Assembly: GCA_035640355.1 (NCBI GenBank)
Contig: DASQWI010000007.1
Span: 10,166 to 74,165 of the forward strand
Direction: 5' to 3'
Source: Actinomycetota bacterium
GTDB taxonomy: Bacteria > Actinomycetota > UBA4738 > HRBIN12
Length of the DNA: 64,000 bases
Shown here in pieces: positions 25,938 to 53,614 of this stretch; positions within the stretch are counted from its first letter, which is position 1; each line of letters begins with the position of its first letter. Position numbers and translations under genes: made by a program. The notes below the pieces were generated by a model. The model had not been told where the DNA came from, ran no database searches, and worked only from the letters and a program-made list of their open reading frames with translations.

Positions 25938-26068
25938 GGGTCGGGAGCACCGGGAGCCGTCGCCCAGGGAAGCCTGGGCGACGGCTGTCCCGTTCCACCC
26001 CATACAATCGCCCTACGTGGACGTTCGCAGCGGCTTCCCTCTACGTGACCGCGGTCTGAGGAACCTGC

Positions 26069-27034: not shown

Positions 27035-28071
27035 TCGACGGCACGCCCCGTGTCTCGTCCGCCGAGCCGCTCATGGAGGTTCGGAACCTGAGGGTTCACT
27101 TCCCGACGGCGGACGGGGTCGTCAAGGCCGTCGACGGGGTGAGCTTCGCCATCGATGCCGGCGAGACGCTGGGCGTGGTCGGTGAGTCGGGCTCCGGGAA
27201 GAGCGTCACGTTCCTCACCGTGATGGGGCTCGTCACGTCGAAGCAGGCACACATCGAAGGCGAGATCCTGTTCCGGGGCCAAGATCTGCTCCGCCTACCC
27301 GACGAGGAGCTCCGTCACTTCCGCGGCAAGCTGATGGGGATGGTGTTCCAGGACGCGATGACGTCGCTTCACCCCTTCTACACGGTCGGGGAGCAGATCG
27401 TGGAGGCCGTCCGCGCGCACGAGAAGGCGTCGAAGAAGGAGGCCTGGGATCGGGCCGTCGACATGCTCAACCTCGTGGGTATTCCCAAGCCCGCCGAACG
27501 CGCACGCCAGTACCCACACGAGTACTCGGGCGGCATGCGGCAGCGCGTGATGATCGCCATGGCCCTCGCCCTGAACCCGGACCTGCTGATCGCGGACGAG
27601 CCGACCACCGCGCTCGACGTGACGGTGCAGGCGCAGATCCTTGAGCTCATCGACCGCCTGAAGCAGGAGTTCCGCATGGCGGTCGTGCTGATCACGCACG
27701 ACCTCGGCGTCGTCGCCGAACACTGCGATGACATCCAGGTCATGTACGCCGGCACGATCGTCGAGGCGGGCCGGACGCGCGACATCTATTACGACGCGCA
27801 CCACCCGTACACGTGGGGCCTGCTGCAGTCGATCCCGCGACTCGACAGCGACGAGGATGAGCCGCTCCACCCCATCAAGGGGCTGCCGCCGTCGCTGATC
27901 TTCGTCCCGTCGGGGTGCCCGTTCCACCCGCGATGCCCGTACGTCATGGACGTCTGCCGGGAGATCGTGCCCCCGCTCCTCCCATCGGACGGGCACCACG
28001 CGTCCGCGTGTCACCTCTCACTCGCGGAGAAGGAACGGATCTTCCGCGAGCAGGTCCTCGAGCGGGCATGA
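27031..28071 (+). CDS. Peptide ABC transporter ATP-binding protein (OppD-like), second system
   Basis: The ATG at 27031 overlaps the permease stop (ATGA). Walker A (GESGSGKS), signature YSGGMRQR, and a Cys-rich C-terminus. The track ORF 26308..28071 is a fused out-of-frame extension. Confidence 0.9.
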
Positions 28072-29156: not shown

Positions 29157-29192
29157 CGGCGTCTCCCATTCCGGCCGGTAGACTGGGTCGCC

Positions 29193-29417
29193 GTGCTGGA
29201 CGTCGTCGCCCTCGTGCTGAACATCCTGTCGAGCCTGTTCCTCATCGTGTTCATCCTGCTGCACTCGGGGAAGGGGAGCGGGCTGTCGGACATGTTCGGC
29301 GGGTCGTCGAGCCTGTCAGGCGGCACGTCGCTCGAGCGCCGGCTGGACCGGATCACCGTCGCTACTGGTCTGATCTTCGGTCTGAGCACGTTCTGGCTGT
29401 CTTGGCAGTGGAAGTAA
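29193..29417 (+). CDS. secG: Preprotein translocase subunit SecG
   Basis: 74 aa with two TM helices and a Gly/Ser-rich loop (HSGKGSGLSDMFGGSSSLSGG), typical of SecG. GTG start. Confidence 0.85.
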   Translation: MLDVVALVLNILSSLFLIVFILLHSGKGSGLSDMFGGSSSLSGGTSLERRLDRITVATGLIFGLSTFWLSWQWK

Positions 29418-29460: not shown

Positions 29461-29549
29461 GTCGGAGTGGCGGAACTAGGTAGACGCGCTAGGTTGAGGG
29501 CCTAGTGGGCGCATAGCCCGTGGGGGTTCAAATCCCCCCTCCGACACCA
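29461..29549 (+). tRNA. tRNA-Leu, anticodon GAG
   Basis: Cloverleaf folded by hand. Acceptor stem GTCGGAG/CTCCGAC. Anticodon stem CTAGG/CCTAG with loop TTGAGGG. Long variable arm. T-arm GGGGG-TTCAAAT-CCCCC. Discriminator A and encoded CCA. Confidence 0.85.
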
Positions 29550-31532: not shown

Positions 31533-33206
31533 ATGAGACGACGCATCTTTCCGTTGGTGGCCGCGCTCTCCTTTGTCGCCGTCCTGGCGACGCCCTCGCT
31601 CGCCGCGCCGAACGCCCGCGTGACCATCGACGACCGGGCGGGCAGCTACGTGCGCTACGACGGCGGCACCGACACTACGACGAACGGCTGCAGCACGGGA
31701 CGCCGGCAGCAGAACGAGCCGTCGGTCGCGGTCGACCCCTCGAGCCCGAACGTGGTCGTGGCGGGGGCGAACGACTACTGCTCCGCGATCGTGAACGACG
31801 AGGTCTGGACCGGGTACTACCGTTCGACGGACGGTGGGCGCACGTGGACCAACAGCCTGGTCCCCGGGTACCCGGACGACACGTCGGCCGCAGGTACGGC
31901 CTCGCCCGTGCACGGCAGCTGCGCGGCAGCCGGCGACCCCACACAGTCGTTCGACGCCGACGGGAACCTGTTCTACGCCTTCATCTGCTTCAACCGTTCG
32001 GCGCCTGTCAACGGGTCCGTTTACGTCGCGAAGTACACGAACCACGGCGCCACGTACGACCGGACGGTGCTCGTCAAGAGCGGGACGCCGTCCGGGCTGT
32101 TCCTGACCGGGCTGTTCCAGGACAAGATCAACCTCACGGTCGACCAGACTGCAGGCGCCTATGGCGGGAACGTGTACGTCGCTTGGTCGCAGTACGACGG
32201 CTTCGCGCCGACGAACGCCGTCCTGTTCTCGCGGTCCACGAACGGTGGCCTTTCGTTCTCCCGGCCGATCAGGGTCACGCCGAAGGAGCGGGGGACCGCC
32301 TCGTTCGCGGACCTGGCCGTGGGCCCGGAGGGGACGGTGTGGCTCACGTACCTGACCTATCCATCCTCGAGCCGGCCGACGGCGGACATCTGGCTGCAAC
32401 GCTCTACGAGCGGGGGTGTCTCGTTCGAGGCGCCGATCCACGTCGCCTCGATCGAGCTGTTCGACTCGAACCAGTTCGCCGGCACGACGGGGACGGTCGA
32501 CTGCGGCGACGGGCCGTTCGAGTGCGAAAGCGGACTCACGTTCTCGCGGTTCTTCAGCAACTCGGCGGTCACCGCCGACGAGACCGGCGTGCACGTGGTG
32601 TGGGGCTCCGAGCTGCCGAGTGGCCAGTCGAAGGTCTTCGTGCGCAACTCGCCCGACGGCGGTGACACGTGGGGCGAGGCCGAGACCCTCGACGCGGTGA
32701 CACTGGGCCACCAGTGGTTCCCCGATGTTGCGACGGCGGACGGAACGCTTACGGTGATCTTCTACGACTCGAGGGACGACCCGGCCTACTCGCCGAGTCT
32801 GCCGCCGGGCAACACCGGCAGCGGAATGAACTCGGGTGACGTGGTCCAGGCGATGATCGCCGAGTCGACCGACGGCGGTCACAGCTGGACGGAGTCCGTG
32901 GTGAGCACGTCGGGGAGCAACTTCGGGTGGATGACGCACGGGTCGCGCCGGGTCGGGTTCTGGGGCGATTACCTCTATGTCTCGGCTGTGTCTGGCGCGG
33001 TGAACGTCGTATGGACGGATTCCCGGGACCTCGTGGGAGGCGTCGACCCGCGCGAGGGCGCCGACGTGGAGGGCTTTGACGTCCTCCAGCCCTGCACCTA
33101 TGTGCCGAACGACATCGACGCGCCCTCGTACTCGTCACCGACGATCGACGATCCCTGCCTGAGCAAGGGAGGCCTGGACCAGAATATCTACGGCGCGCGC
33201 GTCTAG
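31533..33206 (+). CDS. BNR/Asp-box repeat secreted protein (paralog of the disrupted gene upstream)
   Basis: Signal peptide (MRRRIFPLVAALSFVAVLATPSLA-AP). Multiple Asp-boxes (STDGGRTW, STNGGLSF, STSGGVSF, SPDGGDTW, STDGGHSW). Confidence 0.75.
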   Translation: MRRRIFPLVAALSFVAVLATPSLAAPNARVTIDDRAGSYVRYDGGTDTTTNGCSTGRRQQNEPSVAVDPSSPNVVVAGANDYCSAIVNDEVWTGYYRSTDGGRTWTNSLVPGYPDDTSAAGTASPVHGSCAAAGDPTQSFDADGNLFYAFICFNRSAPVNGSVYVAKYTNHGATYDRTVLVKSGTPSGLFLTGLFQDKINLTVDQTAGAYGGNVYVAWSQYDGFAPTNAVLFSRSTNGGLSFSRPIRVTPKERGTASFADLAVGPEGTVWLTYLTYPSSSRPTADIWLQRSTSGGVSFEAPIHVASIELFDSNQFAGTTGTVDCGDGPFECESGLTFSRFFSNSAVTADETGVHVVWGSELPSGQSKVFVRNSPDGGDTWGEAETLDAVTLGHQWFPDVATADGTLTVIFYDSRDDPAYSPSLPPGNTGSGMNSGDVVQAMIAESTDGGHSWTESVVSTSGSNFGWMTHGSRRVGFWGDYLYVSAVSGAVNVVWTDSRDLVGGVDPREGADVEGFDVLQPCTYVPNDIDAPSYSSPTIDDPCLSKGGLDQNIYGARV

Positions 33207-38426: not shown

Positions 38427-39104
38427 TCACCTGATGCCGACCTCGTCGAGGTGCGCCAGCAGATCGGCGGTGTCCTCGTACACGCGGTACGCGCCGGCGC
38501 GCTCGAGCTCCTCGCGCCCGTACCCGCCGGACAAGACCCCGACGCCCAGGGCGCGCGCACGCCGAGCGGCCAGGAGATCCCAGATACTGTCGCCCACCAC
38601 GACGCAGTCCTCGACCGCGATGACGAGCTTCTCCGCCGCGGTGAGGAACAGATCGGGATCGGGCTTGGCCCTGGGGACGAGTTCGCGTGTGACAACCGGA
38701 ACGTCGTCGGGGACGTTGAGGAGCTCGATCGCCGGGCCTGCCGATTCCCGGTAGCCGCTCGTCGCGATGGCCCAAGGGGTGCCGCCGTCCGTCAGTGCCC
38801 GAAGCAGCTCGAGCGCCCCCGGCAGCGGTCTGACCTGCGAGCCGCGGCGGGCGTAGGCCTCGGCGTGGAGCCGCCGGAGCAGGGCTGCGTCCTCGGCGGT
38901 CACCTCCCGACCGGTCTCGCGAAGGAGGGCGTTCGCGAACAATCCGCCTGACATGCCGACCTTTCGGTGGATCCGCCACACCGACAGCTCGATCCCGGCC
39001 GCCTCGAGCGCCTCGCGCCACGCGAGGACGTGTTGGTAGACGCTGTCCACGAGCGTTCCGTCCAGGTCGAACAGGAACGCCTGCTGCCGGTCCACGCCGC
39101 GCAT
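38427..39104 (-). CDS. HAD-superfamily hydrolase, subfamily IA (beta-phosphoglucomutase-like)
   Basis: FLFDLDGTLVDS motif I, and downstream HAD motifs (GIATSG, GDSIWD). The start is taken at the second Met. Confidence 0.75.
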   Translation of the reverse strand: MRGVDRQQAFLFDLDGTLVDSVYQHVLAWREALEAAGIELSVWRIHRKVGMSGGLFANALLRETGREVTAEDAALLRRLHAEAYARRGSQVRPLPGALELLRALTDGGTPWAIATSGYRESAGPAIELLNVPDDVPVVTRELVPRAKPDPDLFLTAAEKLVIAVEDCVVVGDSIWDLLAARRARALGVGVLSGGYGREELERAGAYRVYEDTADLLAHLDEVGIR

Positions 39105-39370: not shown

Positions 39371-41047
39371 GTGACGGGTCGAGCGACGTTCGCGCTCGTC
39401 AACGGTGCGGTGCACACGGTCGATCCGAGGCGACCGCGCGCGCAGGCCGTCGCCGTGGCGGACGGGAAGATCGCCGCGATCGGCACCGACGACGACGTGC
39501 GCGAGGTCATCACGTCCGGTACCGAGGTCCTCGACCTGAAGGGCCGGACGGTGCTCCCCGGCTTTCAGGACGCGCACGTGCACCCCCCGAGCGGTGGTCT
39601 GGAGATGTTGCGCTGCAACCTGTCCGACGCGTACTCGATCCCGGAGTACGAGCGCATCATCGCCACGTACGCGGCCGAGCATCCCGAGGTCGAATGGATC
39701 CTCGGCGGCGGCTGGTCCATGGACGTGTTCCCGCGAGGTAACCCGCCGAAGGACGTCCTCGACCGACTGATTCCGGATCGGCCCGTGATGCTTCCGAGCC
39801 GCGACGGCCACAGCGTGTGGGTCAACTCCAGGACGCTGGAGATCGCCGGCATCACGAAGGACACGCCGGATCCGGTCGACGGCGTGATCGTCCGCGACGA
39901 CGGCGGCGAGCCGTGGGGGACACTCCACGAGGGCGCCGTGTTCCTCGCGGAGAAGTTCGCGCCGGCGGAGACGACCGAGGACTGGATCGCCGGGCTCCGC
40001 GTCGCGCAAGGCTATCTCCACTCGCTCGGCATCACGGCGTGGCAGGACGCGATCGTCGGCGTCAACGAGGTGTACCGGACGTTGGACGCGTACCTCCGGT
40101 TCGCAGGAGCGGATGAGCTCACCGCAAGGGTGGTCGGTGCGCTGTGGTGGGACCGGTACCGAGGCGAGGAGCAGATCGACGAACTCCTCGAGGCGCGCGA
40201 ACGCGGCCGCGAGGGCCGGTTCGCGGCGACGAGCGTGAAGATCATGCAGGACGGCGTGATCGAGAACTTCACCGCGGGGGTGCTCGAGCCGTACCTCGAC
40301 GAGAGCGGGAAGCCGACCGACAACCGCGGGAAGTCGTTCGTCGAACCCGAAGCGTTGAAACGCTACGTGTCGCGGCTCGACGCCGAGGGGTTCCAGGTCC
40401 ACTTCCACGCGATCGGGGAGCGCGCCGTTCGAGAGTCACTCGACGCGGTCGAGGCCGCTCGGAACGCGAACGGGATGAACGACCACCGCCACCACATCGC
40501 GCACATCCAGATCATCCACCCCGACGACATCCCGCGGTTCGCCCAGCTCGGCGTCGCCGCGAACATGCAGCCGCTGTGGGCGCAGAACGAACCGCAGATG
40601 CTCAACCTGACGATCCCGTTCCTCGGCGAGGTGCGCTCGAGCTGGCAATATCCGTTCGGCTCGCTGATCCGGTCCGGGGCGACGCTCGTCGCCGGGAGCG
40701 ACTGGTCGGTCTCGAGCGCCAACCCGATCGAGGAGATCCACGTCGCGGTGAACAGGAAGGGTTTCGGCGGTCAGACATACGCCCCGGAAGGCGACTGGAC
40801 GAGGGTGCCGTTCATCCCCGGCGAGGCGGTGGATCTCGAGACGGCCATCCGCGCGTTCACGTTGGGATCGGCGTTCGTGAACCATCTCGACGACGTCACC
40901 GGGTCGCTCGAGCCTGGCAAGTACGCGGACCTGATCGTGCTGGACCGCGACCTGTTCTCCATCCCCGCGGACGAGATCCACGCGGCGCGGGTGGTGCTGA
41001 CGCTCGTCGAGGGCGAGCGCGTCTTCGCGTCACCCGACCTTTCCTGA
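39371..41047 (+). CDS. Amidohydrolase family 3 (YtcJ-like) metal-dependent hydrolase
   Basis: The GTG at 39371 begins VTGRATFALVNGAVHTVD...VLPGFQDAHVHP. It also carries the C-terminal HAIGERAV and AGSDW motifs of Amidohydro_3. The track ORF is extended to 39116. Confidence 0.8.
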   Translation: MTGRATFALVNGAVHTVDPRRPRAQAVAVADGKIAAIGTDDDVREVITSGTEVLDLKGRTVLPGFQDAHVHPPSGGLEMLRCNLSDAYSIPEYERIIATYAAEHPEVEWILGGGWSMDVFPRGNPPKDVLDRLIPDRPVMLPSRDGHSVWVNSRTLEIAGITKDTPDPVDGVIVRDDGGEPWGTLHEGAVFLAEKFAPAETTEDWIAGLRVAQGYLHSLGITAWQDAIVGVNEVYRTLDAYLRFAGADELTARVVGALWWDRYRGEEQIDELLEARERGREGRFAATSVKIMQDGVIENFTAGVLEPYLDESGKPTDNRGKSFVEPEALKRYVSRLDAEGFQVHFHAIGERAVRESLDAVEAARNANGMNDHRHHIAHIQIIHPDDIPRFAQLGVAANMQPLWAQNEPQMLNLTIPFLGEVRSSWQYPFGSLIRSGATLVAGSDWSVSSANPIEEIHVAVNRKGFGGQTYAPEGDWTRVPFIPGEAVDLETAIRAFTLGSAFVNHLDDVTGSLEPGKYADLIVLDRDLFSIPADEIHAARVVLTLVEGERVFASPDLS

Positions 41048-41165: not shown

Positions 41166-42317
41166 ATGCCGTTCGACATGAGCCAGGTTCAGCGCGGTGC
41201 CCGGAACCGGCGCACGCCGTACTACGAAGCGACGCAGCGGTACGAACCGATGGGATTCACCGTCTACAACCACATGTATTTCCCGATCCGGTTCGACACG
41301 TTCGAAGCCGAGTTCGACGCGTTGCTGAACGGCGTCACGTTGTGGGACGTGTCGGTCGAGCGGTGCCTGGAGATCTCCGGGCCCGACGGGTTCCGTTTCG
41401 CGCAGCTCCTTACCCCGCGCGATCTGTCGAAGTGCGCGGTCGGTCAGGCGAAGTACGTGTTGATCTGTGACGGCGACGGAGGCCTCGTCAACGATCCGGT
41501 CCTCACGCGCATGGACGAGAACACGTTCTGGTTCGCGCTGGCGTCGTCGGACGCGTTGTTGTTCGCGCGAGGCCTCAAGAACGCCTACCCGGATCTGAAC
41601 GTGACGATCAAGGAGGCCGACGTCGCGCCGCTCCAGGTTCAGGGACCTCGGTCCAAGGATCTGATGGTCAAGCTCCTCGGCGAGGAGATCCTCGAGCTCA
41701 AGTACTACTGGTGGACCGAGGCCAAGATCGCCGGCGCGCCGGTCGTCATCACCCGAACGGGATGGACGTCCGAGGTGGGATACGAGGTCTATCTCACGGA
41801 CACGACGCGCGGCACCGACGTGTACGAGGCGATCATGTCGGCAGGCGAGGAGTTCGACATCAAACCAACGGGTCCATCGGATATCCGGCGCATCGAGGGG
41901 GCCATCTTCAACTGGGGCGCCGACATGACGTACGAGAACAACCCGCTCGAGATGGGACTGGAGCGACTCGTCGCGTGGGATCTGCCCGACGACGCGAGCC
42001 TCTCGCTCCCAGCGCTGCGGCAGATCAGGGACCGAGGCGTCTCCCGCAGGATCAACGGCATCGAGATCGACGGCGACCCCTTCCCCGAGCTCAACAACGT
42101 CAAGTGGCCCGTCACCGACGGCGGTGAGCGCATCGGCAAGGTCACCTCGGCGATCTACTCGCCGCGGCTGGAGCGGAACATCGGGTTCGTGTGGCTGCCG
42201 GCGGACCGCTCCACGCTGGGGACGAGCGTCACGGTCGACACGGAGTGGGGTACCCGGGCGGCCACGGTCGTGGAGATGCCGTTCGTCGACCCGGACAAGC
42301 GCATCCCGGTCTCCTGA
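41166..42317 (+). CDS. GcvT-fold aminomethyltransferase-family protein (THF-dependent demethylase, LigM/DesA/DmdA-like), paralog 1
   Basis: RRTPYYEAT...FTVYNHMYFP...LWDVSVER...GPDGFRFAQLLTPRDL...GQAKY...NDPV folate-binding GCV_T fold. Lacks the FAD domain of oxidase-fused forms. A GAGGAGG RBS precedes the ATG at 41166. Confidence 0.8.
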   Translation: MPFDMSQVQRGARNRRTPYYEATQRYEPMGFTVYNHMYFPIRFDTFEAEFDALLNGVTLWDVSVERCLEISGPDGFRFAQLLTPRDLSKCAVGQAKYVLICDGDGGLVNDPVLTRMDENTFWFALASSDALLFARGLKNAYPDLNVTIKEADVAPLQVQGPRSKDLMVKLLGEEILELKYYWWTEAKIAGAPVVITRTGWTSEVGYEVYLTDTTRGTDVYEAIMSAGEEFDIKPTGPSDIRRIEGAIFNWGADMTYENNPLEMGLERLVAWDLPDDASLSLPALRQIRDRGVSRRINGIEIDGDPFPELNNVKWPVTDGGERIGKVTSAIYSPRLERNIGFVWLPADRSTLGTSVTVDTEWGTRAATVVEMPFVDPDKRIPVS

Positions 42318-42422: not shown

Positions 42423-43604
42423 ATGGCGAACGAACGCCCAGAGATGCTCGAGCAGAGCGCGACGATCTACTTCGGGCCGTGGTACAGACGCTCGCCGTAC
42501 TTCGAGGCGACCCGCCGGGCCGGGTGCACCGCATACGACGTGTACAACCACATGCTGCTGCCGGCGTACTTCGACGACCCAGTCACCGAGTACTGGGCCC
42601 TCCTCAACGACGTCACGGTATGGGACGTCGCCGTGGAACGCACCGTGGAGATCTCCGGCAAGGACGCCGACCGATTCGTCGACATGCTCACGTGCCGCGA
42701 CCTGACGAAGTGCGCGGTGAAGCAGGGCAAGTACATGATCGTCACGGCGCCGGACGGCGGCATCGTGAACGATCCCGTGCTGCTCCACGTCGGCGACAAC
42801 CGCTGGTGGATGCAGCTCGCCGACTCGGACGCCGGTCTGTACGCGCTCGGCGTGGCCACGCAGGCGAACGTGGACGTGGACGTCTCGTACCCGCACGCGT
42901 ACCCGATGCAGGTGCAGGGCGCCAAGGCGGCGAAGGTACTCGAGAAGCTCGTGGGCGCGGCGATCTACGACCTGAAGTACTACTGGTGCGACTGGTTCGA
43001 CATCAAGGACATCCCCGTTCTGATCAGCCGAACGGGATGGACGGCGGTGCGGGGGTTCGAGATCAACCTGCTCGACCCCGACCGCGGCGACGACCTGTGG
43101 AACGCGGTCTTCGAGGCGGGCGACGAGCTCGGCATCCGGGCGGTTGCACCGGTCGAGGCTCGTCGCATCGAGGCCGGGATCATGAACTACAACTCCGACA
43201 TGACGCACGAGGACACGCCTCTGCACATCATGGGACTCGAGCACCTCGTCGAGGACCAGCCGCAGGACTACATCGGCAAACGAGCGCTCGAGGACCTCAA
43301 GGCCCGCGGCGTCGACCGCAAGCTCGTGGGGATCGAATGGGAAGGCAACGAGCTGCCCGCCGAGCTGTCGTGGTTCTGGCCCGTCGTTCGAAACGGCGAG
43401 CGGGTGGGGAGGGTCACCGACGCGATCTGGTCTCCACGGCTCGAGAGGAACATCGGATACGCCTGGGTCCCGATCGATCTGGCCGGACCGGGGAACGCCC
43501 TCCAGGTGGAGTCGGAGCACGGACCCCTCACCGTCATGACGACGGCGATCCCCTTCGTCGACGCGCGGAAGGAGGTGCCGGCGAGCGACCTGCGGGCCAG
43601 CTGA
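42423..43604 (+). CDS. GcvT-fold aminomethyltransferase-family protein (THF-dependent demethylase-like), paralog 2
   Basis: Same motif set as the preceding gene (RRSPYFEAT...YDVYNHMLLP...VWDVAVERTVEISGKDADRFVDMLTCRDL). It is a clear tandem paralog, with roughly 45-50% identity by eye. Confidence 0.8.
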   Translation: MANERPEMLEQSATIYFGPWYRRSPYFEATRRAGCTAYDVYNHMLLPAYFDDPVTEYWALLNDVTVWDVAVERTVEISGKDADRFVDMLTCRDLTKCAVKQGKYMIVTAPDGGIVNDPVLLHVGDNRWWMQLADSDAGLYALGVATQANVDVDVSYPHAYPMQVQGAKAAKVLEKLVGAAIYDLKYYWCDWFDIKDIPVLISRTGWTAVRGFEINLLDPDRGDDLWNAVFEAGDELGIRAVAPVEARRIEAGIMNYNSDMTHEDTPLHIMGLEHLVEDQPQDYIGKRALEDLKARGVDRKLVGIEWEGNELPAELSWFWPVVRNGERVGRVTDAIWSPRLERNIGYAWVPIDLAGPGNALQVESEHGPLTVMTTAIPFVDARKEVPASDLRAS

Positions 43605-43630: not shown

Positions 43631-44074
43631 ATGGCTCGCACGCTCGACCGAAGGCCCCCGCCCACCGTTCCGCCGCCGCGCGGGTTCCGCAGGGCGATCG
43701 TCCTTGTCGAACGCGCCATCAAGGAGGCCGTGTGGGACTGCCGGATGTGTGGGCAGTGCATCCTTCACTCCACCGGCCTCGTCTGCCCGATGCGGTGTCC
43801 GAAGAACCTGCGGAACGGCCCGTGCGGCGGCACCCTCCAGGACGGTCACTGCGAGGTCGTTCCCGACATGAAGTGCGTGTGGGTGTCCGCGTGGGAGGGC
43901 TCGCGGACGCTGCCGCTGTGGCGCGACCATATCGAGCGCGTTGAGCCACCGGTCGACTGGCGACTGCAGGAGACGTCGTCGTGGGAGAACCTGCTGACGC
44001 GGCGTGACCAGCACGTGCCGGCGGCGTGGGACCCGGCGAGACGACAGCCGGCGAGCACGAAGCGCGAGCGATGA
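43631..44074 (+). CDS. MTHFR C-terminal-domain-like zinc-ribbon protein (MetV-like partner of MetF)
   Basis: 147 aa Cys-rich protein (CRMCGQCILHSTGLVCPMRCPKNLRNGPCGG...C) resembling the MTHFR_C / MetV small subunit. The stop overlaps the metF-like start (ATGA). Confidence 0.55.
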   Translation: MARTLDRRPPPTVPPPRGFRRAIVLVERAIKEAVWDCRMCGQCILHSTGLVCPMRCPKNLRNGPCGGTLQDGHCEVVPDMKCVWVSAWEGSRTLPLWRDHIERVEPPVDWRLQETSSWENLLTRRDQHVPAAWDPARRQPASTKRER

Positions 44075-45024
44075 GCGCCGCTCCGTCGGCGCGGAGCGAC
44101 CTCCACCGCTTGCTCCTTAGCCGCGAGTTCGTGGTGACGGCGGAGCTCCAGGCCACTGACTCGGCCGACCCCCGATCGGTCGCGGAGCTCGCCGATGTCT
44201 TTCGGGGGAAGGTGGACGCCGTCAACGCCACCGACAACAGCTCGGCGCACCCGCATCTCTCGCCGATGGCGGCCGCGCACCTGCTCTCCGACGCCGGGAT
44301 CGAACCGATCATGCAGTTCGTATGCCGAGACCGGAACCGGCTTGCGCTGCAGGCCGACATGCTCGGCGCAGCTACGCTCGGCGTTCGGAACGTCTTGTGC
44401 ATGACCGGCGATGACGTGAGCGTCGGAGATCATCCCGAGGCGAAGCCGATCTACGACATCGACTCGATCCACCTGCTCCGGATCGCCCGTGTGCTGCGCG
44501 ACGAGGGCAGGTACGTGTCGGGACGGCAGCTGACGCAGCCGCCGGAGTTCCTCATCGGAGCCGTCGAGAACCCGTTCGCACCCCCGCTGGACTTCCGGCC
44601 GATGCGCCTGGGGAAGAAGATCCAAGCCGGCGCCGAGTTCGTCCAGACTCAGATCTGCTTCAACCTGTCGAAGATGCGTTTGTTCATGGCTCGATGTGCG
44701 GATCTCGGCCTGCTGGAGCACGCCTGGGTGCTCGCCGGAGTGTTCGTGCCGCGGTCGGCCAAGGCCGTCCGGTACCTGCGCGACCAGGTCCCGGGGATCG
44801 ACGTTCCCGATGAGGTCGTCGACCGTCTCGACTCGGTCCCGCCGGATCGGCAACGGGACGAAGGCATCGGACTCGCGCTCGACATCGTCGAGCAGGTTCG
44901 CGCGATCCCCGGCGTAAGCGGCCTGCACCTGATGACGATCCGGAACGAGGAGGCGATCGTCGAGGTCATCGAGCGCGCCGGGCTGCTTCCCCGGCCGAGC
45001 TCCGTTCCGCAGGCCGTCGGCTGA
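44071..45024 (+). CDS. metF: Methylenetetrahydrofolate reductase family protein (acetogen/MetF-type, paired with a MetV-like gene)
   Basis: TIM-barrel MTHFR motifs (VTAELQATDSADP...VNATDNSSAHPHLSPMAAAHLL...FVCRDRNRLALQADMLGAATLGVRNVLCMTGDD). The ATG at 44071 overlaps the upstream stop. Confidence 0.8.
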   Translation: MSAAPSARSDLHRLLLSREFVVTAELQATDSADPRSVAELADVFRGKVDAVNATDNSSAHPHLSPMAAAHLLSDAGIEPIMQFVCRDRNRLALQADMLGAATLGVRNVLCMTGDDVSVGDHPEAKPIYDIDSIHLLRIARVLRDEGRYVSGRQLTQPPEFLIGAVENPFAPPLDFRPMRLGKKIQAGAEFVQTQICFNLSKMRLFMARCADLGLLEHAWVLAGVFVPRSAKAVRYLRDQVPGIDVPDEVVDRLDSVPPDRQRDEGIGLALDIVEQVRAIPGVSGLHLMTIRNEEAIVEVIERAGLLPRPSSVPQAVG

Positions 45025-45135: not shown

Positions 45136-46221
45136 ATGACCAAGCCAATGAACAGGTTCCTCGTCTCGTCAATCGCGTCGGTCGCGCTGCTCCTCGCGGC
45201 GTGCACGTCGAGCACCACGGATGCGGACAACGCCCAGGCCCGAGAACTGCCCACGAGTGCACCCATCCCCACGAGCCGCGGCACGGTGGCCGACGTCGTC
45301 GACCAGGTCCTCCCGTCGGTCGTGAACGTCAAGAGAGACGGCGGACAGGGGACGGGGTTCGTCGTGCGCGAGGACGGCGTGATCGTGACGAACTTCCATG
45401 TCGTCGAGGGTGCGTCCCGGCTCAGAGTCTTCACCTCGGACGAGCAGCCCCAAGAGTTCGACGCGAGGGTGATCGGCGGCGACATACAAGCAGACCTGGC
45501 CGTGCTCGACGTCGACGCCAAGGGGCTGCCGGCGGTTCCGCTCGGTGACTCGGGCGAGCTGCGGCTCGGTCAGCAGGTCGTGGCACTCGGGTATGCGCTG
45601 GGACTAGAGGGAGGGCCGTCGGTGACGTCCGGCATCGTGTCGTCACTCACCCGGAGGATCAGCGTTCGCGATCCCGGTTGCCCGCTCGAGGAGTGCGGCT
45701 CGGATCAGGAGCGCGTGTACACGGACGTGATCCAGACCGACGCCGCCATCAATCCGGGCAACTCGGGCGGTCCGCTGGTCGACATGGCGGGCAACGTCGT
45801 CGGCATCAACACTGCCGGCACGAGCGCCGCCGAGAACATCGGGTTCGCCATCCAGATCAGCTCCGTCACGCCGACGATCACGCAGGCCGCCGAGGAGCCC
45901 GGTGCGCCCGTCGCGTTCATGGGGATCGGTTCCATCGACGCGTCCGATCCGGAATTTCAGTTCACAACCGGAACCTCTGTCGAGGAGGGCGCTGGCATCG
46001 TCAATGTCGTCCCGGGCGGCCCGGCGGAGGACGCCGGCGTCGAAGAAGGAGACGTCGTCGTCACATTCGATGGCGAGGCGATCCCGGACTCCGCGGCGCT
46101 CGGCGAAGCGATCCGGTCGCACGAACCGGGAGACACTGTTGAATTCGAGGTGGTTCGTCCCACCGGTGAGCGGGTGACGCTCTCCGTCGAGCTCGGCGTG
46201 AATCCCGCTGCCATCGCTTGA
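45136..46221 (+). CDS. htrA: HtrA/DegP-family trypsin-like serine protease with a C-terminal PDZ domain (lipoprotein)
   Basis: Lipobox LLLAAC. Catalytic-triad context (TNFHVVEG, ADLAVLDV, GNSGGPLVD) and a PDZ region at the C-terminus. Confidence 0.85.
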   Translation: MTKPMNRFLVSSIASVALLLAACTSSTTDADNAQARELPTSAPIPTSRGTVADVVDQVLPSVVNVKRDGGQGTGFVVREDGVIVTNFHVVEGASRLRVFTSDEQPQEFDARVIGGDIQADLAVLDVDAKGLPAVPLGDSGELRLGQQVVALGYALGLEGGPSVTSGIVSSLTRRISVRDPGCPLEECGSDQERVYTDVIQTDAAINPGNSGGPLVDMAGNVVGINTAGTSAAENIGFAIQISSVTPTITQAAEEPGAPVAFMGIGSIDASDPEFQFTTGTSVEEGAGIVNVVPGGPAEDAGVEEGDVVVTFDGEAIPDSAALGEAIRSHEPGDTVEFEVVRPTGERVTLSVELGVNPAAIA

Positions 46222-47171: not shown

Positions 47172-48926
47172 GTGATGCGCGAGCCCGATCCACGCGAAGA
47201 GCAGGAACGGGCGGAGAAGCAGATCCACGAGTTGCAGACGCAGGTCCGCTTCCTCGAGGACGAGATCGCGCTCCTTCGCCGCCGCCTCACGAACGCTCCT
47301 CGTCAGGTCAAGATCCTGGAGGAGAAGCTCCTCGAGGCCAAATCCGATCTCTCTCGCGCGCTCGTGCAGAACGAGAAGCTCACGTCGACGCTCACCTCGG
47401 AGAAGGAACGCATCGAGGGCCTCCGTGAGGAGGTCGAGAAGCTCAGCCGACCGCCCGCCTCGTTCGGCGTGTTCCTGGTCGCCAACGACGACGACTCGGT
47501 GGACGTGTTCACCGCGGGTCGCAAGATGCGGGTGAACGTTTCGCCCGAGGTCGACCGGGCCGCGCTGCACAAGGGCGCAGAGGTGATCCTCAACGAGGCA
47601 CTGAACGTCGTCGAGGTGCTCGAACCGGACCGTGCCGGCGAGGTCGTGAAGGTGAAGGACCGCCTGGGCGACGACCGCGTGGTGGTGATCGGCCGCGGCG
47701 ACGAGGAGCTCGTGGCGACACTCTCGGCCGGCCTGCTGAGAGAACCGATCCGCGCTGGCGATCCGCTTTTGATCGACCCGCGATCCAACGTCGCGCTGGA
47801 GAAGCTCCCCAAGGAAGAGGTCGAGGAGCTGGTCCTTGAGGAGGTGCCGGACGTCTCCTACGACGACATCGGCGGCCTGGAGGGACAGATCGAGGCGATC
47901 CGCGACGCGGTCGAGCTCCCGTTCCTGTACGCGGAGCTGTTCGCAGAGCACGAGCTCGAGCCGCCGAAGGGCGTCCTGCTGTACGGCCCCCCTGGTTGCG
48001 GGAAGACGCTGATCGCCAAGGCCGTCGCCAAGTCGCTCGCCGACAAGGTTCGCGAGCGCACCGGACGTCAGGACGCACACTCGTACTTCCTGAACATCAA
48101 GGGGCCCGAGCTGTTGAACAAGTACGTCGGGGAGACCGAGCGACAGATCCGGCAGATCTTCCAGCGCGCGAAGGAGCGGAGCGAGGAAGGGCTACCGGTC
48201 ATCGTCTTCTTCGACGAGATGGACTCCATCTTCCGGACGCGCGGTTCGGGCATCTCGAGCGACGTCGAGTCGACGATCGTGCCGCAGCTGCTCTCGGAGC
48301 TCGACGGCGTCGAAACGCTGAAGAACGTCATCGTGATCGGGGCCTCGAACCGCGAGGACCTCATCGACCCGGCGATCCTCCGGCCCGGTCGCCTGGACGT
48401 GAAGATCAAGATCGAGCGCCCCGACGTGAACCAGGCGCACGACATCATGCGCAAGTACCTGAACCCGAAGGTTCCGATCCATCCCGACGAGATCGACAAG
48501 TCCGGTCGCGACGTCTCCGCGGCGACGAGCAAGATGATCCAGCAGACCGTCGATCGGATGTACTCCGAGAACCAGGAGAACCGCTTCCTCGAGGTGACGT
48601 ACGCGAGCGGCGACAAGGAGATCCTGTATTTCAAGGACTTCAACTCCGGCGCGATGATCGAGAACATCGTGCGTCGCGCGAAGAAGGAGGCGATCAAGCG
48701 CTTCCTGTCGACGGGGGAGAAGGGCATCAAGAGCGAGGACCTCGCGCACGCCATCCGAGACGAGTTCAAGGAGAACGAGGACCTGCCGAACACGACCAAC
48801 CCGGACGACTGGGCCCGGATCTCGGGCAAGAAGGGCGAGCGCATCGTGTACGTGCGCACGCTGCTCGGCGACGGGGCGGGTGAGGGACGGCAGGTCGAAC
48901 GCGTCAGCGCCGGTCAGTACCTGTAG
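47172..48926 (+). CDS. arc: Proteasome-associated AAA+ ATPase ARC/Mpa
   Basis: N-terminal coiled coil, OB domains, Walker A (GPPGCGKT), and the C-terminal GQYL proteasome-docking motif (...SAGQYL*). Confidence 0.95.
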
Positions 48927-48935
48927 GCTTCGCCG

Positions 48936-50420
48936 GTGGCCATCCCCAAGGTCGTTGGTACCGAGACCGAGTACGGCATCTCGGCGATCGGCGCACCTGA
49001 GTTCAATCCCGTCATCTCGAGCTCGCTGCTGATCAGCACGTACGCCGGAGCGTTGCGACGCATCCGCTGGGACTACGAGCAGGAGTCACCGCTCAGAGAC
49101 GCGCGCGGGTTCGAGCCCGTTCAGGTACGTGAGCCGTCGGAGGAGGATCTCGGGCTCGCAAACGTGATCCTTCCCAACGGCGCGCGCTACTACGTGGACC
49201 ACGCGCACCCGGAGTACTCGACGCCCGAGTGTGCCACGCCGCGTGAACTGGTGATCCACGACAAGGCCGGCGAGCGCGTGCTTGAGCGCTCGATGCTCGA
49301 GCTGGAGCGTGCCGTGCCGACGGGCCAGCGCATCGCCGTCTACAAGAACAACAGCGACGGCAAGGGAAACTCATACGGCACGCATGAGAACTACCTGGTG
49401 GACAGGGCGGTGCCGTTCGGGAACATCGTGCGGGACCTGACACCGTTCTTCGTGTCCCGGCAGATCTTCTGCGGCGCCGGCAAGCTCGGCGCCGAGGCGC
49501 CGTGGGACGACCGGAACCGACACCGGTACCAGATCAGCCAGCGCGCGGACTTCTTCGAGGCGGAGGTTGGTCTGGAGACGACGCTCAAGCGTCCGATCAT
49601 CAACACCCGCGACGAACCGCATGCCGACCCGGACAAGTATAGGAGGCTCCACGTCATCGTCGGCGACGCGAACCTGTGTGAAGTGGCGATCCTGCTCAAG
49701 GTGGGGACCACATCGCTCGTGCTGAAGATGATCGAGGACGAGTACCTGCCGGATCTCACCGTGGCGAACGCGGTGGCGTCGCTGCACGAGGTCTCGCGGG
49801 ATCTCGCCGGCCGGGGAATGGTCCGGCTCGCGGACGGGCGGAGGCTCACGGCGGTCCAACTGCAGTGGGAGTTCCTGGAGCGGGCCAAGAAGTACGTGGA
49901 GCAGGAGGACCCGACCTCCGACAACCAGGAGGTCGTGGAGCGGTGGGAGTCGGTGCTCACGGCGCTCGAGGACGACCCGATGCAGTTACACCGGGAGCTC
50001 GACTGGGTGGCCAAGTACAGGCTGCTCGAGGGATACCGCGAGCGCGACGGGCTCGACTGGAGCGACCACAAGCTCAGGCTCATCGACCTGCAGTACCACG
50101 ACGTCCGACGGGAACGCGGCTTGTACCACCGGCTGGTGGCGACCGGAAAGGTCGAGCGCATCGTCAGCGACCACGAGATCGAGCGCGCGGTCATGGAGCC
50201 GCCTGAGGACACGCGAGCGTACTTCCGAGGGAGATGCATCTCGCGGTACCCGGACGCGATCGCCGCCGCGAGCTGGGACTCGGTGATCTTCGACACCGGG
50301 CGGGAAGCGTTGCAGCGCGTTCCAATGCGCGAGCCCCTCAGGGGAACGAGGGCACACGTCGAGGAGCTGCTCGAGCAGTCGCCCGACCCGGCGACGCTCG
50401 TCGACCTTCTCAAGTCGTAG
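48936..50420 (+). CDS. dop: Pup deamidase/depupylase Dop
   Basis: 494 aa and a PafA homolog (GTETEYGIS). It carries the Dop-specific insertion and sits in the dop position between arc and pup. Confidence 0.9.
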   Translation: MAIPKVVGTETEYGISAIGAPEFNPVISSSLLISTYAGALRRIRWDYEQESPLRDARGFEPVQVREPSEEDLGLANVILPNGARYYVDHAHPEYSTPECATPRELVIHDKAGERVLERSMLELERAVPTGQRIAVYKNNSDGKGNSYGTHENYLVDRAVPFGNIVRDLTPFFVSRQIFCGAGKLGAEAPWDDRNRHRYQISQRADFFEAEVGLETTLKRPIINTRDEPHADPDKYRRLHVIVGDANLCEVAILLKVGTTSLVLKMIEDEYLPDLTVANAVASLHEVSRDLAGRGMVRLADGRRLTAVQLQWEFLERAKKYVEQEDPTSDNQEVVERWESVLTALEDDPMQLHRELDWVAKYRLLEGYRERDGLDWSDHKLRLIDLQYHDVRRERGLYHRLVATGKVERIVSDHEIERAVMEPPEDTRAYFRGRCISRYPDAIAAASWDSVIFDTGREALQRVPMREPLRGTRAHVEELLEQSPDPATLVDLLKS

Positions 50421-50465
50421 CGTCGCCCACGGGTAGAATCGCTGCCTCGACAGGAGGATTGAAGC

Positions 50466-50669
50466 GTGCCGCAAGAGCAGGAGCAGAAGAGGACGCAACG
50501 TCGCGACGGTGGCGGCGAGGGCGACGAGGCCGCGGGCCAGGTCGAGCAGGCCTCCAGGACCGAGAAGCTGAAAGAGGAGATGGACGAGATCCTCGACGAG
50601 ATCGACTCGGTCCTCGAGGAGAATGCCGAGGAGTTCGTGAAGTCCTACGTCCAGAAGGGCGGGGAGTGA
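50466..50669 (+). CDS. pup: Prokaryotic ubiquitin-like protein Pup, ending in GGE
   Basis: 67 aa and acidic, with the C-terminal ...QKGGE* motif. The GTG start has an AGGAGGA RBS. The stop overlaps the prcB start (GTGA). Confidence 0.9.
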   Translation: MPQEQEQKRTQRRDGGGEGDEAAGQVEQASRTEKLKEEMDEILDEIDSVLEENAEEFVKSYVQKGGE

Positions 50670-51505
50670 CGGACGCTCCCGGCGTGTCGCCCCTCTCCAC
50701 GGGCGGCATCATCGGGGCGAATCCCAGCTTCTTCGACCTTCTCGCCCGCAATCGTCCAGAAGCCATCCCACAGGGGGGAGTCTCAGGGCCGCCCGATGAC
50801 GTCCGCGGCGCGCACGGGACCACCGTCGTCGGGCTGAAGTTCGGCGTCGGCGTCGCGTTCGCCGGCGACCGTCGCGCAACGGAAGGCTTCGCGATCGCCG
50901 ACGACCGGATGGAGAAGGTCTTCGCCGCCGATCACTACTCCGTCATCGCCATCGCCGGCGCCGCGGGTCAGGCCATCGAGATCGTGCGCCTGTTCCAGCT
51001 GGAGCTCGAGCACTACGAGAAGATCACCGGCGACCGGCTCTCGCTCGAGGGAAAGGCCAACCGGCTGGGGCAGATGATTCGAGCGAACTTCCCCCTCGCC
51101 ATCCAGGGCCTCGTGGTCGTGCCGTTGTTCGGCGGTTTCGACGAACGGCGCGGTGCCGGACGGATCTTCTACTACGACGCGACGGGAGGCAGGTGGGAGG
51201 AACAGGACTTCCACGCGACCGGCTCGGGTGGTCGCGCCGCGAAGAGCACACTCAAGAAGCGGTGGCGTCCGGATCTCGATCGCGACGAGGCGGTTCGCGT
51301 CGCCGTCGAGGCCCTCGTCGACGCCTCGCAAGAAGATGTTGCGACCGGCGGACCCGACCCGGCGCGGGGGATCTTTCCCACGCTCGTCGTTGCCACGTCG
51401 GAGGGAACCGCGGTCGTCACCGACGACGAGATCCGCGCGGCATACGAGCGGATCGTAGCGGAGCAGGCGACCCGGTCCGGGTCGGGGAACGGTGGTGCTC
51501 CGTGA
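50666..51505 (+). CDS. prcB: 20S proteasome beta subunit PrcB (with propeptide)
   Basis: Propeptide followed by the HGT|TVVGLKF Thr1 active-site context. The track ORF is extended to 50234. Confidence 0.92.
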   Translation: MTDAPGVSPLSTGGIIGANPSFFDLLARNRPEAIPQGGVSGPPDDVRGAHGTTVVGLKFGVGVAFAGDRRATEGFAIADDRMEKVFAADHYSVIAIAGAAGQAIEIVRLFQLELEHYEKITGDRLSLEGKANRLGQMIRANFPLAIQGLVVVPLFGGFDERRGAGRIFYYDATGGRWEEQDFHATGSGGRAAKSTLKKRWRPDLDRDEAVRVAVEALVDASQEDVATGGPDPARGIFPTLVVATSEGTAVVTDDEIRAAYERIVAEQATRSGSGNGGAP

Positions 51506-52191
51506 GCTTCATGCCGTACGTCCCGCCCGAGCAGCTGATGAAGGACCGCTCCGAGTTCGCGCACAAAGGCATCGCGCGCGGCAAGTCCGTCGTCGGGGTC
51601 GAGTACGCGGACGGATTGCTCTTCGTCGCGGAGAACCCCAGCGCCACCCTTCACAAGATCAGCGAGATCTACGACAGGATCGCCTTCGCCGGCGTCGGCA
51701 AGTACAGCGAGTTCGAGGACCTTCGTATCAGCGGTGTCCGGCTCGCCGATCTGCGTGGCTACTCGTACGGGCGCGAGGACGTTCGCGCGCGCGATCTCGC
51801 GAATGCATATTCCCAGGCGCTATCGACGATCTTCACCACGCAGATGAAGCCATACGAGGTGGAGATCGTGGTCGGCGAGGTCGCCGATGATGCCGGGCGG
51901 AACGAGATCTACCACATCCTGTTCGACGGAACCGTCACCGACGAACAGGGATTCGTGGCAATCGGCGGCCATGCCGACGAGCTCACGACCGCGGTGAGCA
52001 ACGCGTACCAGCAGGGGTGGGACCTCGCGACCGGCGTGCGCGAGGCCGTGAGCGCGTTGCGATCGGCAGAGAACCGGCAGATCGAGGCCGAGTCGATCGA
52101 GGCGGGCGTGCTCGATAGAACGAGCCGTCCGCGGCGGAAGTTCCGGCGGCTCGAAGAGGAGGAGATCGCCGGCATCCTGTCGGCTGCCTGA
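51502..52191 (+). CDS. prcA: 20S proteasome alpha subunit PrcA
   Basis: [46 protein letters not shown], a typical PrcA N-terminus. The start overlaps the prcB stop (GTGA). Confidence 0.92.
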
Positions 52192-52255
52192 GCCTCGTCG
52201 GGCCGGTCCTTCGAAGCATCCCGGTCATTCGCCGTCTGGGACCTACACTCGGTAC

Positions 52256-53614
52256 ATGGAACGCCGGATATTCGGGCTGGAGAACGAGTACGGGGTAACC
52301 TGCACCTTCCGAGGCCAGCGGCGGCTGTCGCCCGACGAGGTCGCGCGCTACCTGTTCCGCCGCGTCGTCCGCTGGGGTCGCTCGTCGAACGTGTTTCTCG
52401 AGAACGGCGCGCGACTCTACCTCGATGTTGGCTCGCATCCGGAGTACGCCACGCCGGAGTGCGACTCGATCACGGACCTCGTCGCGCACGACAAGGCGGG
52501 GGAGCGGATCCTCGAGGCGCTCCTCGCGGCGGCGGAGGTTCGGCTCCACGAGGAGGGCATCAGCGGGCAGGTCTACCTGTTCAAGAACAACACCGATTCG
52601 GCCGGCAACTCGTACGGTTGCCACGAGAACTACCTCGTGGCGCGGCAGGGCGAGTTCGCGCGGATGGCCGACCTGCTGATCCCGTTCTTCGTCACGCGGC
52701 AGATCTACTGCGGTGCGGGGAAGGTGTTGCATGGACCCCGCGGGGCGCAGTTTTGCATCGCACAACGCGCGGAGCACATCTGGGAGGGCGTCTCGAGCGC
52801 GACAACGCGTTCCCGGCCGATCATCAACACTCGGGACGAGCCCCACGCCGATGCCGAGCGGTTCCGCCGGCTGCACGTGATCGTCGGCGACTCGAACATG
52901 AACGAGTGGACCACGTTCATGAAGGTCGGCATCACGGATCTGGTGCTGCGGATGGTGGAGGCGAACACGGTGATGCGTGACCTCACGCTGGAGAACCCGA
53001 TCCGCGCGATCCGAGAGATCAGCCACGACGTCACATGCCGAAAGAAGGTCCGGCTGGCGAACGGGCGGGAGCTCACCGCGATCGACGTCCAGGAGGAGTA
53101 CTTCGAGCGGACGGCGCGCTTCCTCGAACGGCGCGGAACCGACCCTCAGTCCAAGCAGCTGCTGGAGGAGTGGCGCGACGCGCTCGACGCGTTGACCGAC
53201 GGTGAGCCGGAGCGACTGATCAGAAAGGTCGACTGGGTGGCGAAGCAGGCCATGATCGATCGCTACCGTGCCCGCCACAGCCTTCCGCTGTCGCATCCAC
53301 GCATCGCGCTGCTCGACCTGGCGTACCACGACGTCAACCGCGGTCGAGGGCTGTACTACCTATTGGAGCGCGAGGGTCGAGCCGAGCGCGCCGCTACCGA
53401 GAAAGAGATACAGCGCGCGATGAGGGAGCCACCGCAGACGACTCGCGCCAAGCTGCGAGGCGATTTCATCAAGCACGCGAAGCAGAAGCGGCGCGACTAC
53501 ACGGTCGACTGGGTTCACCTGAAGCTGAACGACCAGGCGCAACGCACGGTGCTGTGCAAGGACCCGTTCCGCGCCGCCGACGAGCGGGTCGAGCAGCTGA
53601 TCGCCCACATGTAG
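52256..53614 (+). CDS. pafA: Pup--protein ligase PafA
   Basis: 452 aa. [14 protein letters not shown] and the carboxylate-amine ligase fold shared with Dop, without the Dop insertion. Confidence 0.92.

Follow-up and report, generated by a model that had tools for sequence, protein, structure and literature searches.

A core-only MetV/MetF pair beside DmdA-like genes in a soil actinobacterium, a candidate two-subunit methylene-tetrahydrofolate reductase

Several bacterial modules combine a tetrahydrofolate (THF)-dependent demethylase with a methylene-THF reductase (MTHFR, MetF), such as LigM–MetF–LigH of Sphingobium sp. SYK-6 and cmuAB–metF2–folD–purU of Methylobacterium extorquens CM4, and to our knowledge the MetF of these modules is a single-subunit enzyme. 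DmdA of Pelagibacter and Ruegeria is also a THF-dependent demethylase, with 5-methyl-THF as its product. A second, Cys-rich reductase subunit, MetV, is presented in the MetVF literature as belonging to strict anaerobes and the Wood–Ljungdahl pathway (PMC8515935, PMC5736913). The present analysis concerns a minimal metV–metF pair found behind two tandem DmdA-like genes in a 64-kb window (the whole stretch of DNA analysed) from contig DASQWI010000007.1 of an Actinomycetota bacterium. All coordinates given below are positions in this window, and proteins encoded there are referred to as window proteins. The pair is considered here, with fair though far from full confidence, to encode a two-subunit methylene-THF reductase that would re-oxidise the 5-methyl-THF released by DmdA-like methyltransferases.

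The closest described enzymes are the acetogen MetVF of type II (‘2S’), known from Clostridium ljungdahlii, C. formicoaceticum, Thermoanaerobacter kivui and Eubacterium callanderi (PMC8515935, PMC8760232). Purified acetogen MetVF contains about 7–8 Fe per heterodimer and does not use NAD(P)H; two [4Fe-4S] clusters have been predicted, and MetV has also been annotated as zinc-containing (PMC8515935, PMC8760232). The type II enzyme is further characterised by FMN in MetF and by reduced ferredoxin as electron donor. In T. kivui, the N-terminal domain of MetV resembles small Fe-S proteins (PMC4320612). For the C. formicoaceticum enzyme, PMC8760232 describes a methyl-THF oxidation coupled to rubredoxin and FAD, not to ferredoxin. 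The physiological redox partner of two-subunit MetVF is open even in acetogens (PMC8760232). In the acetogen Acetoanaerobium noterae, taken from a chromosome-sized record within a plasmid collection and with gene names assigned from open reading frame (ORF) translations and the gene order described in PMC4320612 and PMC8515935, the cluster reads fhs, fchA, metV (225 aa), metF (302 aa), lpdA, which is a typical Wood–Ljungdahl arrangement. MetFV types have been stated to occur only in strict anaerobes (PMC8515935), metV was stated to be absent from other Chloroflexi (PMC5736913), and reports of actinobacterial MetVF are confined to a Moorella-type hdr/mvhD setting, in single amplified genomes that encode the Wood–Ljungdahl pathway (PMC7325909). 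A different setting is provided by the glycine-betaine demethylation cluster of Ruegeria pomeroyi, which consists of MtgB, MtgC and MtgD with RamA, DUF1638 and MetF2. The product of its metF paralogue, a gene adjoining mtgD, shows the strongest induction of all proteins on N-osmolytes and was proposed as a methyl-THF oxidiser; a MetV partner is unmentioned in that work (PMC12478193).

The window locus shares with acetogen type II systems the presence of two genes with metV just upstream of metF (overlapping in some acetogen species), the NGPCGG motif, an eight-Cys core, the same MetF subfamily and the lack of Hdr/Mvh or RnfC2 genes nearby. It differs from them in its host, an uncultured soil actinobacterium, in its neighbours, which are DmdA-like methyltransferases and not fhs, fchA, folD, lpdA or acs, in the oxidative direction proposed for it, and in the size of MetV, which is 147 aa long (an estimated 16 kDa or so) versus about 23 kDa. 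Compared with A. noterae MetV, it lacks an N-terminal domain of about 135 aa bearing five extra Cys. The type III and IV enzymes are associated with RnfC2 or with HdrABC–MvhD, and no such partner genes adjoin the window metVF. The initial annotation of this DNA had called the pair ‘acetogen-style’. The label holds for the eight-Cys NGPCGG core, which is common to the acetogen protein, and fails for the N-terminal domain, the Wood–Ljungdahl context and the overall similarity of only 29% identity.

Comparison with the aerobic systems is also instructive. As in the proteobacterial betaine clusters, an MTHFR gene lies beside the gene of an enzyme that makes or, in the window, would make methyl-THF, and an oxidation of methyl-THF is proposed. 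Unlike in those clusters, genes for a corrinoid protein, an MttB-family methyltransferase, RamA and DUF1638 are all absent from the window, so that methyl transfer would be corrinoid-independent, via GcvT-family enzymes. The proteobacterial MetVs carry a Cys-free N-terminal extension of 50–90 aa, which window MetV does not have. The common logic with the THF-demethylase–MetF modules would be that a methyltransferase loads THF and a co-located MetF returns the methyl group to methylene-THF. The window differs from these modules by the obligatory-looking Cys-rich partner of its MetF, and by its DmdA-like genes, which are tandem paralogues.

The family assignment is not new, since RefSeq and GenBank already name these proteins. 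In the literature searched, no description was found of a core-only MetV as MetF partner outside anaerobes, of a systematic placement of MetV in demethylation clusters, or of MetV with tandem DmdA-like genes in soil Actinomycetota or Acidobacteriota.

The MetV and MetF subunits

The elements of the pair are the following.
43631..44074, plus strand: metV, 147 aa, core-only MTHFR_C subunit (PF12225, E=1.2e-26)
44071..44074, plus strand: ATGA junction, the metF ATG (44071-44073) over the metV TGA, 4-nt overlap
44071..45024, plus strand: metF, 317 aa, catalytic subunit with an MTHFR TIM barrel, of the kind that pairs with MetV (PF02219)

Direct reading of the sequence places the metV ATG at 43631 and its in-frame TGA at 44072-44074. 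The profile PF12225 (DUF5981, ‘Methylene-tetrahydrofolate reductase C terminal’) matches residues 23-111 with 92.7 bits, for a cut-off of 23 bits, and the alignment spans profile positions 8-95 of 95. Codon usage is that of a genuine gene pair: the GC content at codon positions 1/2/3 is 0.67/0.56/0.88 in metV and 0.73/0.44/0.87 in metF, and the value of 0.88 at the third position of metV is reached in its own frame only, the other two frames giving 0.67 and 0.56. The window region is matched by the 1.13-Mb contig Ga0435664_0000002 of metagenome 3300039397 from the Joint Genome Institute (JGI), on which the JGI calls give the same pair, 147 aa and 317 aa with a 4-nt overlap. Contigs near-identical to the window were also found in the soil metagenomes of PRJEB7626. 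On near-identical contigs, other gene callers have shortened metV to 109 aa (L086, 1490-1819) or 94 aa (L087, 19968-20252). The start at 43631 is retained, since later starts miss the invariant C37 and homology reaches residue 6, from which the homologues are conserved (LDRRPP). Public protein sets therefore hold truncated MetV entries for this lineage.

MetV homologues are numerous. A word-indexed search gave 5199 clusters at 90% identity (E<=1e-3), the closest homologues being 84% identical and from uncultured Actinomycetota. HMMER over 1.84 billion representatives yielded 1108 clusters at 50% identity (E<=1e-3), of which 535 had E<=1e-10. An alignment of 85 close homologues contains 46 invariant columns, among which are all eight Cys, spaced as C37-x2-C40-x2-C43-x8-C52-x3-C56-x8-C65-x8-C74-x7-C82. 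The Cys-rich pattern noticed at first, C-x2-C-x2-C...C-x3-C...C, is confirmed by this series. The full spacing C-x2-C-x2-C-x8-C-x3-C-x8-C-x8-C-x7-C is found in 129 of the 150 best 50%-identity clusters. The NGPCGG motif, described as the signature of MetV by Yi et al. (PMC8515935), occupies residues 62-67 in the window protein and is present in 144 of these 150 cluster representatives. The eight Cys and NGPCGG are also invariant among seven aligned proteins of quite different architecture, from the window, a member of the Chloroflexia, Azoarcus, Sinorhizobium meliloti, Paracoccus, A. noterae and the C-terminal domain of an Acinetobacter fusion, with identities to window MetV of 69% for Chloroflexia, 48-54% for Proteobacteria, 34% for the Acinetobacter fusion and 29% for A. 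noterae. Judged by these sequence features, the window genes qualify as a bona fide MetV/MetF pair of a minimal, core-only format. The claim that separate MTHFR_C subunits are peculiar to acetogens and anaerobes does not hold, as shown by metV–metF pairs detected by tblastn in S. meliloti, Paracoccus methylovorus and P. aminovorans, Azoarcus sp. KH32C and Shinella.

The metal content of the core can be discussed from its Cys only. They might bind a pair of [4Fe-4S] clusters, or one [4Fe-4S] cluster together with one zinc; both options are considered possible since A. noterae MetV has 13 Cys versus 8 in the window protein. By eye, the C-x2-C-x2-C...C-P spacing looks like ferredoxin-type cluster motifs. 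The N-terminal 35 residues are Cys-free, with a helix modelled at about residues 18-34. Sequence and profile searches of the PDB with MetV returned noise only and no matching chain. AlphaFold2 models of MetV, computed from 14 or 85 sequences, reached a predicted local distance difference test score (pLDDT) of 55 and 61, respectively, with values below 50 in the Cys-rich core, the N-terminal helix being their best part; a Foldseek search of the PDB with the model gave no match. As these models are of low confidence, no structural deduction was drawn about cluster geometry.

The overlap of the metV TGA with the metF ATG, spotted from the start, is read directly at the junction, and the translational coupling and heteromeric enzyme that it evoked appear indeed to be a natural reading when relatives are considered. 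The loci compared are the 80 best of at least 565 confirmed relatives, obtained from a scan of one genome per species; they come from Actinomycetota, Acidobacteriota, Dormibacterota and Chloroflexi metagenome-assembled genomes (MAGs), mostly from soil. In 76 of these 80 loci metF directly follows metV, and the other four contigs stop 145-384 nt past metV. When the metF start codon closest to the metV stop is assumed, the junctions of these 76 loci comprise 46 NTGA 4-nt overlaps, 15 other overlaps and 11 gaps of at most 30 nt. MetV–MetF fusions of 442-482 aa form at least 11 full-length clusters among the 150 best 50%-identity clusters. The opposite order exists too, since tblastn revealed MetF–MTHFR_C fusions on Acinetobacter plasmids. 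Conserved adjacency, overlaps, fusions in both orders and the published MetVF complexes (PMC8515935, PMC8760232) together argue for a heteromeric enzyme.

The Acinetobacter fusions deserve a separate mention. On plasmid p1AsACE of Acinetobacter schindleri (L090, 6924-8315), a 463-aa protein has the eight-Cys MTHFR_C domain at its C-terminal end, and about 24 further Acinetobacter records carry such a fusion. The plasmids that carry the gene are mobilizable, and mesX and a gene for a core methionine synthase lie within a few kb of it. It may be related to ACIAD1783/PP_4638, discussed in PMC7857596 as lacking a known function.

The downstream gene is of the MetF family, as first proposed (PF02219, E=3.1e-32). 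Among NCBIfam models, it matches the MTHFR half of PRK08645 best (E=5e-59, under the cut-off), and it is 49% identical to the MetV-partnered MetF of S. meliloti and 35% identical over the full length to the acetogen MetF of A. noterae. The E. coli and Thermus enzymes match it weakly in a PDB search (E from 1e-4 to 1e-6). Residues were mapped on an E. coli MetF sequence whose numbering agrees with the published residues. The window protein belongs to the same (beta-alpha)8 fold family as canonical MetF (E. coli, Thermus) and mycobacterial Mfr. Of the E. coli residues, Glu28, Asp120, Gln183, Lys172 and Ala177 have their equivalents in it; Glu28 is catalytic, and Asp120 and Gln183 bind folate (PMC11094777). 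In contrast to the canonical single-subunit FAD/NAD(P)H enzyme, window MetF has a partner subunit, and several FAD-contact positions of the E. coli enzyme (Tyr60, His88, Arg118) are not conserved in the alignment. Assignment of MetF to the flavin-free mycobacterial Mfr type was dropped, given the strong PF02219 match and no PDB match labelled Mfr.

Genes around the pair

The genes that precede and flank metVF are listed below.
38427-39104, minus strand: HAD hydrolase (Pfam and gene calls)
39371..41047, plus strand: Amidohydrolase_3 metal hydrolase, 558 aa (PF07969, E=1.9e-96; JGI call, L081), first gene of the run
41166..42317, plus strand: DmdA-like GcvT-family gene 1, 383 aa (PF01571 and PF08669)
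42423..43604, plus strand: DmdA-like GcvT-family gene 2, 393 aa (PF01571 and PF08669)
45136-46221, plus strand: HtrA-like protease, 3' of metF (Pfam and gene calls)

The two GcvT-family proteins are paralogues, 46% identical to each other, and the stop codon of gene 2 lies 26 nt before the metV start. For both, the best match is the dimethylsulfoniopropionate (DMSP) demethylase model NF009133, with 331 bits for protein 1 and 314 bits for protein 2, and the best solved relative of both is Pelagibacter DmdA (3TFH, E=1.2e-68 for protein 1). Their identity to P. ubique DmdA is 34% and 32%, respectively. With an equivalog cut-off of 410 bits, both are classed as DmdA-like, and not as DmdA. The DMSP- and THF-binding residues given for DmdA, W171, S99, E178 and Y180 (PMC7487153), numbered from an alignment, did not match the P. 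ubique chain and were not used. The best PDB relatives of the amidohydrolase are 3IGH and 3ICJ, both uncharacterised metal-dependent hydrolases.

The amidohydrolase gene, the two GcvT genes, metV and metF probably form an operon, with metVF at its end. A promoter scan of the run gave no promoter-like sites, and the terminator scan found no convincing terminator between its genes, only two terminator-like sites, both inside GcvT gene 1 and fewer than in shuffled sequences. The limits of the operon are therefore set by strand and spacing only. Rfam gave no family match in the cluster or upstream of it, and hence no riboswitch for SAM, THF or cobalamin that might indicate anabolic regulation. Wood–Ljungdahl genes (fhs, fchA, folD, lpdA, acs) are absent from the part of the window that is annotated, from about 14 to 64 kb, and the gene calls around metVF include neither rnfC2 nor hdrABC/mvhD. 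Downstream of the HtrA-like protease, the plus strand continues with TrmI and then with the Pup-proteasome genes.

Neighbours of the pair were typed in the 80 loci by tblastn, with protein queries taken from the window and from other loci. GcvT/DmdA-like genes accompany metV–metF in 69 loci, corrinoid methyltransferase genes in 7 and metH in 2; none of the queried neighbours was found in the remaining 2, one of which has about 450 nt of upstream sequence and the other 2.5 kb. Each informative context of this MetV clade holds a methyl-THF-linked enzyme. Synteny between the window and the Actinomycetota loci extends into the downstream housekeeping genes. In 47 Actinomycetota loci both the amidohydrolase and GcvT protein 1 have a match, and there the amidohydrolase homologue is encoded upstream of the GcvT-like genes. 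In seven Acidobacteriota loci, a homologue of GcvT gene 1, about 73% identical in most of them, is found directly upstream of metV–metF, together with a distant GcvT gene (about 31% identity). For one of them (L078), the remaining neighbours are unrelated to those of the window. The linkage between DmdA-like genes and metVF recurs in Actinomycetota and Acidobacteriota.

A variation within the Actinomycetota gives some indication about substrates. In 16 of the 47 loci (for example L013, L016, L023 and L051), the amidohydrolase gene and GcvT gene 1 are separated by an additional gene, which encodes a Rieske oxygenase; it occupies 5466-6671 in L083/L084 and is not present in the window. The best NCBIfam model for this protein is GbcA, under the cut-off. 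Its best PDB relatives are 3VCA (‘ring-hydroxylating dioxygenase’) and 4QUP (‘monooxygenase; demethylase’), which we take to be the stachydrine demethylase Stc2 and a homologue, and the carnitine monooxygenase CntA. The insert looks like an oxygen-dependent N-demethylase and points to substrates of the quaternary-amine type.

Corrinoid systems replace the GcvT genes in other phyla. In seven Chloroflexi/Dormibacterota loci, the order is MtgC-like corrinoid protein, metV, metF, methyl-THF:corrinoid methyltransferase, RACo and DUF1638, followed by formate-THF ligase in five of the seven. An IclR regulator precedes the corrinoid run in both loci annotated with Pfam, and a dimethylglycine-dehydrogenase-like gene lies upstream in two corrinoid loci, with electron-transfer flavoprotein (ETF) genes in the one annotated. 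The corrinoid arrangement and the 4-nt metV–metF overlap are common to S. meliloti, Paracoccus methylovorus and Azoarcus sp. KH32C. An MttB-family methyltransferase gene lies near the pair in S. meliloti and Paracoccus, and genes for a ProV-type and a glycine-betaine-binding ABC transporter, purU and ETF genes lie near that of Azoarcus. These three clusters represent the aerobic cobalamin-dependent glycine betaine demethylation system known from R. pomeroyi. A small gene of about 100-111 aa, annotated ‘virulence factor’, is found just upstream of metV with a few-base overlap in the S. meliloti and Azoarcus clusters (L089, 7469-7771; L092, 7534-7869) and has no counterpart in the window.

Proposed role and its alternatives

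The reaction considered the most plausible for the window pair is the re-oxidation of 5-methyl-THF, and the following scheme can be drawn for it. The DmdA-like enzymes would take a methyl group from an onium-type compound, for which a sulfonium similar to DMSP or a compound similar to betaine can be considered, and pass it directly to THF, so that 5-methyl-THF is formed. MetF would carry the flavin and the folate site and, working with MetV in the oxidative direction, would convert 5-methyl-THF into 5,10-methylene-THF, which would regenerate the folate carrier and feed C1 oxidation or assimilation. The predicted metal centres on the eight invariant Cys of MetV, two [4Fe-4S] or one [4Fe-4S] and one Zn, would link the flavin of MetF with a one-electron carrier outside the enzyme, in place of NAD(P)H.

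Several observations weigh against this scheme. The GcvT proteins stay under the DmdA cut-off at 32-34% identity to DmdA, and some GcvT-family enzymes make methylene-THF, in which case a MetF is unneeded. No gene for a redox partner is encoded in the cluster, and the models of MetV are poor, with the Cys-rich core below a pLDDT of 50. Synteny in the Actinomycetota reaches the unrelated HtrA-like protease, TrmI and Pup-proteasome genes, so that part of the linkage there is explained by vertical inheritance. In two Acidobacteria-type MAGs (L062 and L063), a full-length metH (1245 aa) directly follows metV–metF, so that the same MetVF clade occurs in a methionine-synthesis context in some lineages. 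The methylene/methyl-THF couple has an E0' of about -200 mV (PMC4320612), and methyl-THF oxidation at this potential would demand a suitable electron acceptor.

The alternative that best withstands the comparison, although it looks rather improbable, is that MetVF is a housekeeping anabolic MTHFR, which would convert methylene-THF into methyl-THF for methionine, the DmdA-like neighbours reflecting an inherited gene order without functional meaning. The metH genes of L062 and L063 fit this role, as does the location of the cluster in a conserved core region (pgk-tpi-secG ... Pup-proteasome, tat, helY), where HtrA/TrmI synteny is as conserved as that of the GcvT genes; the best NCBIfam match of MetF is moreover half of a bifunctional enzyme of the methionine pathway. 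An inherited order does not easily account, however, for the recurrence of the GcvT1-like/metV/metF linkage amid different neighbours in Acidobacteriota, nor for the placement of the clade by other phyla inside clusters of corrinoid demethylases, formate-THF ligase or PurU, and the lack of a SAM, cobalamin or THF riboswitch ahead of the genes also argues against it. Both roles are in fact compatible, since the MetVF reaction is reversible.

Less probable still is a MetV devoid of electron transfer, acting as a structural or activating zinc partner of a MetF that would exchange electrons with a pyridine nucleotide or free flavin, a view close to the zinc ribbon first suggested for this protein. 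The eight Cys could indeed make two Zn(Cys)4 sites, and window MetV lacks the N-terminal domain that resembles small Fe-S proteins in T. kivui (PMC4320612). A strong stimulation of MetF activity by MetV is attributed to Mock et al. 2014 in PMC8760232. The iron found in purified MetVF and its failure to use NAD(P)H (PMC8515935, PMC8760232) are nevertheless difficult to reconcile with such a role, and so are the ferredoxin-like Cys spacing, as judged by eye, and the invariance of the eight Cys across all architectures, including the acetogen protein. Finally, long spurious ORFs are frequent at the 67% GC of the window and other callers chose shorter starts, but the idea of metV as a spurious frame in the metF leader is ruled out for practical purposes by the Pfam match, the third-position GC confined to its frame, the thousands of homologue clusters, the invariant columns and the adjacency to metF across phyla, that is, by both the MTHFR_C similarity and the conservation with metF whose absence would have pointed to an artefact.

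The preferred reading, re-oxidation of 5-methyl-THF by MetVF, can be extended more tentatively. Core-only MetV/MetF might represent a distinct class of methyl-THF:acceptor oxidoreductases among bacteria of soil and sea that respire oxygen (Actinomycetota, Acidobacteriota, Chloroflexota, Dormibacterota, Alpha- and Betaproteobacteria), a possibility that we consider rather doubtful in this complete form. The MetV centres would then pass electrons to a carrier of higher potential than NAD+, making methyl oxidation feasible, and the actinobacterial pair would serve a corrinoid-independent pathway of tandem DmdA-like methyltransferases for a soil onium compound.

The minimal pair is in any case widespread, with its at least 565 confirmed species-level matches and 1108 clusters at 50% identity, and it consistently adjoins methyl-THF-forming systems, including in the cultured non-acetogens S. 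meliloti and Paracoccus. Tractable organisms are thus now available for finding the partner of MetVF and its direction. MetV is probably the subunit that has been overlooked at the ‘MetF2’ step when betaine is demethylated aerobically, and the window cluster may be a new demethylation operon of the DmdA-like kind, in Actinomycetota that are abundant in soil.

Other genes of the window

The Pup-proteasome cluster (47175-53614) is complete by Pfam, with an AAA ATPase containing proteasome OB domains, two Pup_ligase-family genes and two Proteasome-family subunits; by position, its genes are read as Mpa/ARC, Dop, Pup, PrcB/PrcA and PafA. The 67-aa ORF of this cluster has no Pfam match in the window, and its counterpart in a related locus (L083) matches PF05639 (Pup). 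WYL-domain (PafB/C-like) and tatA/tatC genes follow, and their presence, together with the Pup-proteasome genes, supports the Actinomycetota origin of the DNA.

Upstream, a 557-aa ORF at 31533-33206 (plus strand, third-position GC of 0.91) is called in three independent assemblies and matches no Pfam family above threshold, with a sub-threshold Tli3 match only. A tRNA gene at 29461-29546 (plus strand) is the sole Rfam match at the gathering threshold in the 64-kb window. Further upstream, from about 16900 to 29200, two tandem sets of Opp-type peptide/oligopeptide ABC transporter genes lie between pgk-tpi and secG, where they interrupt an otherwise conserved actinobacterial pgk-tpi-secG block.

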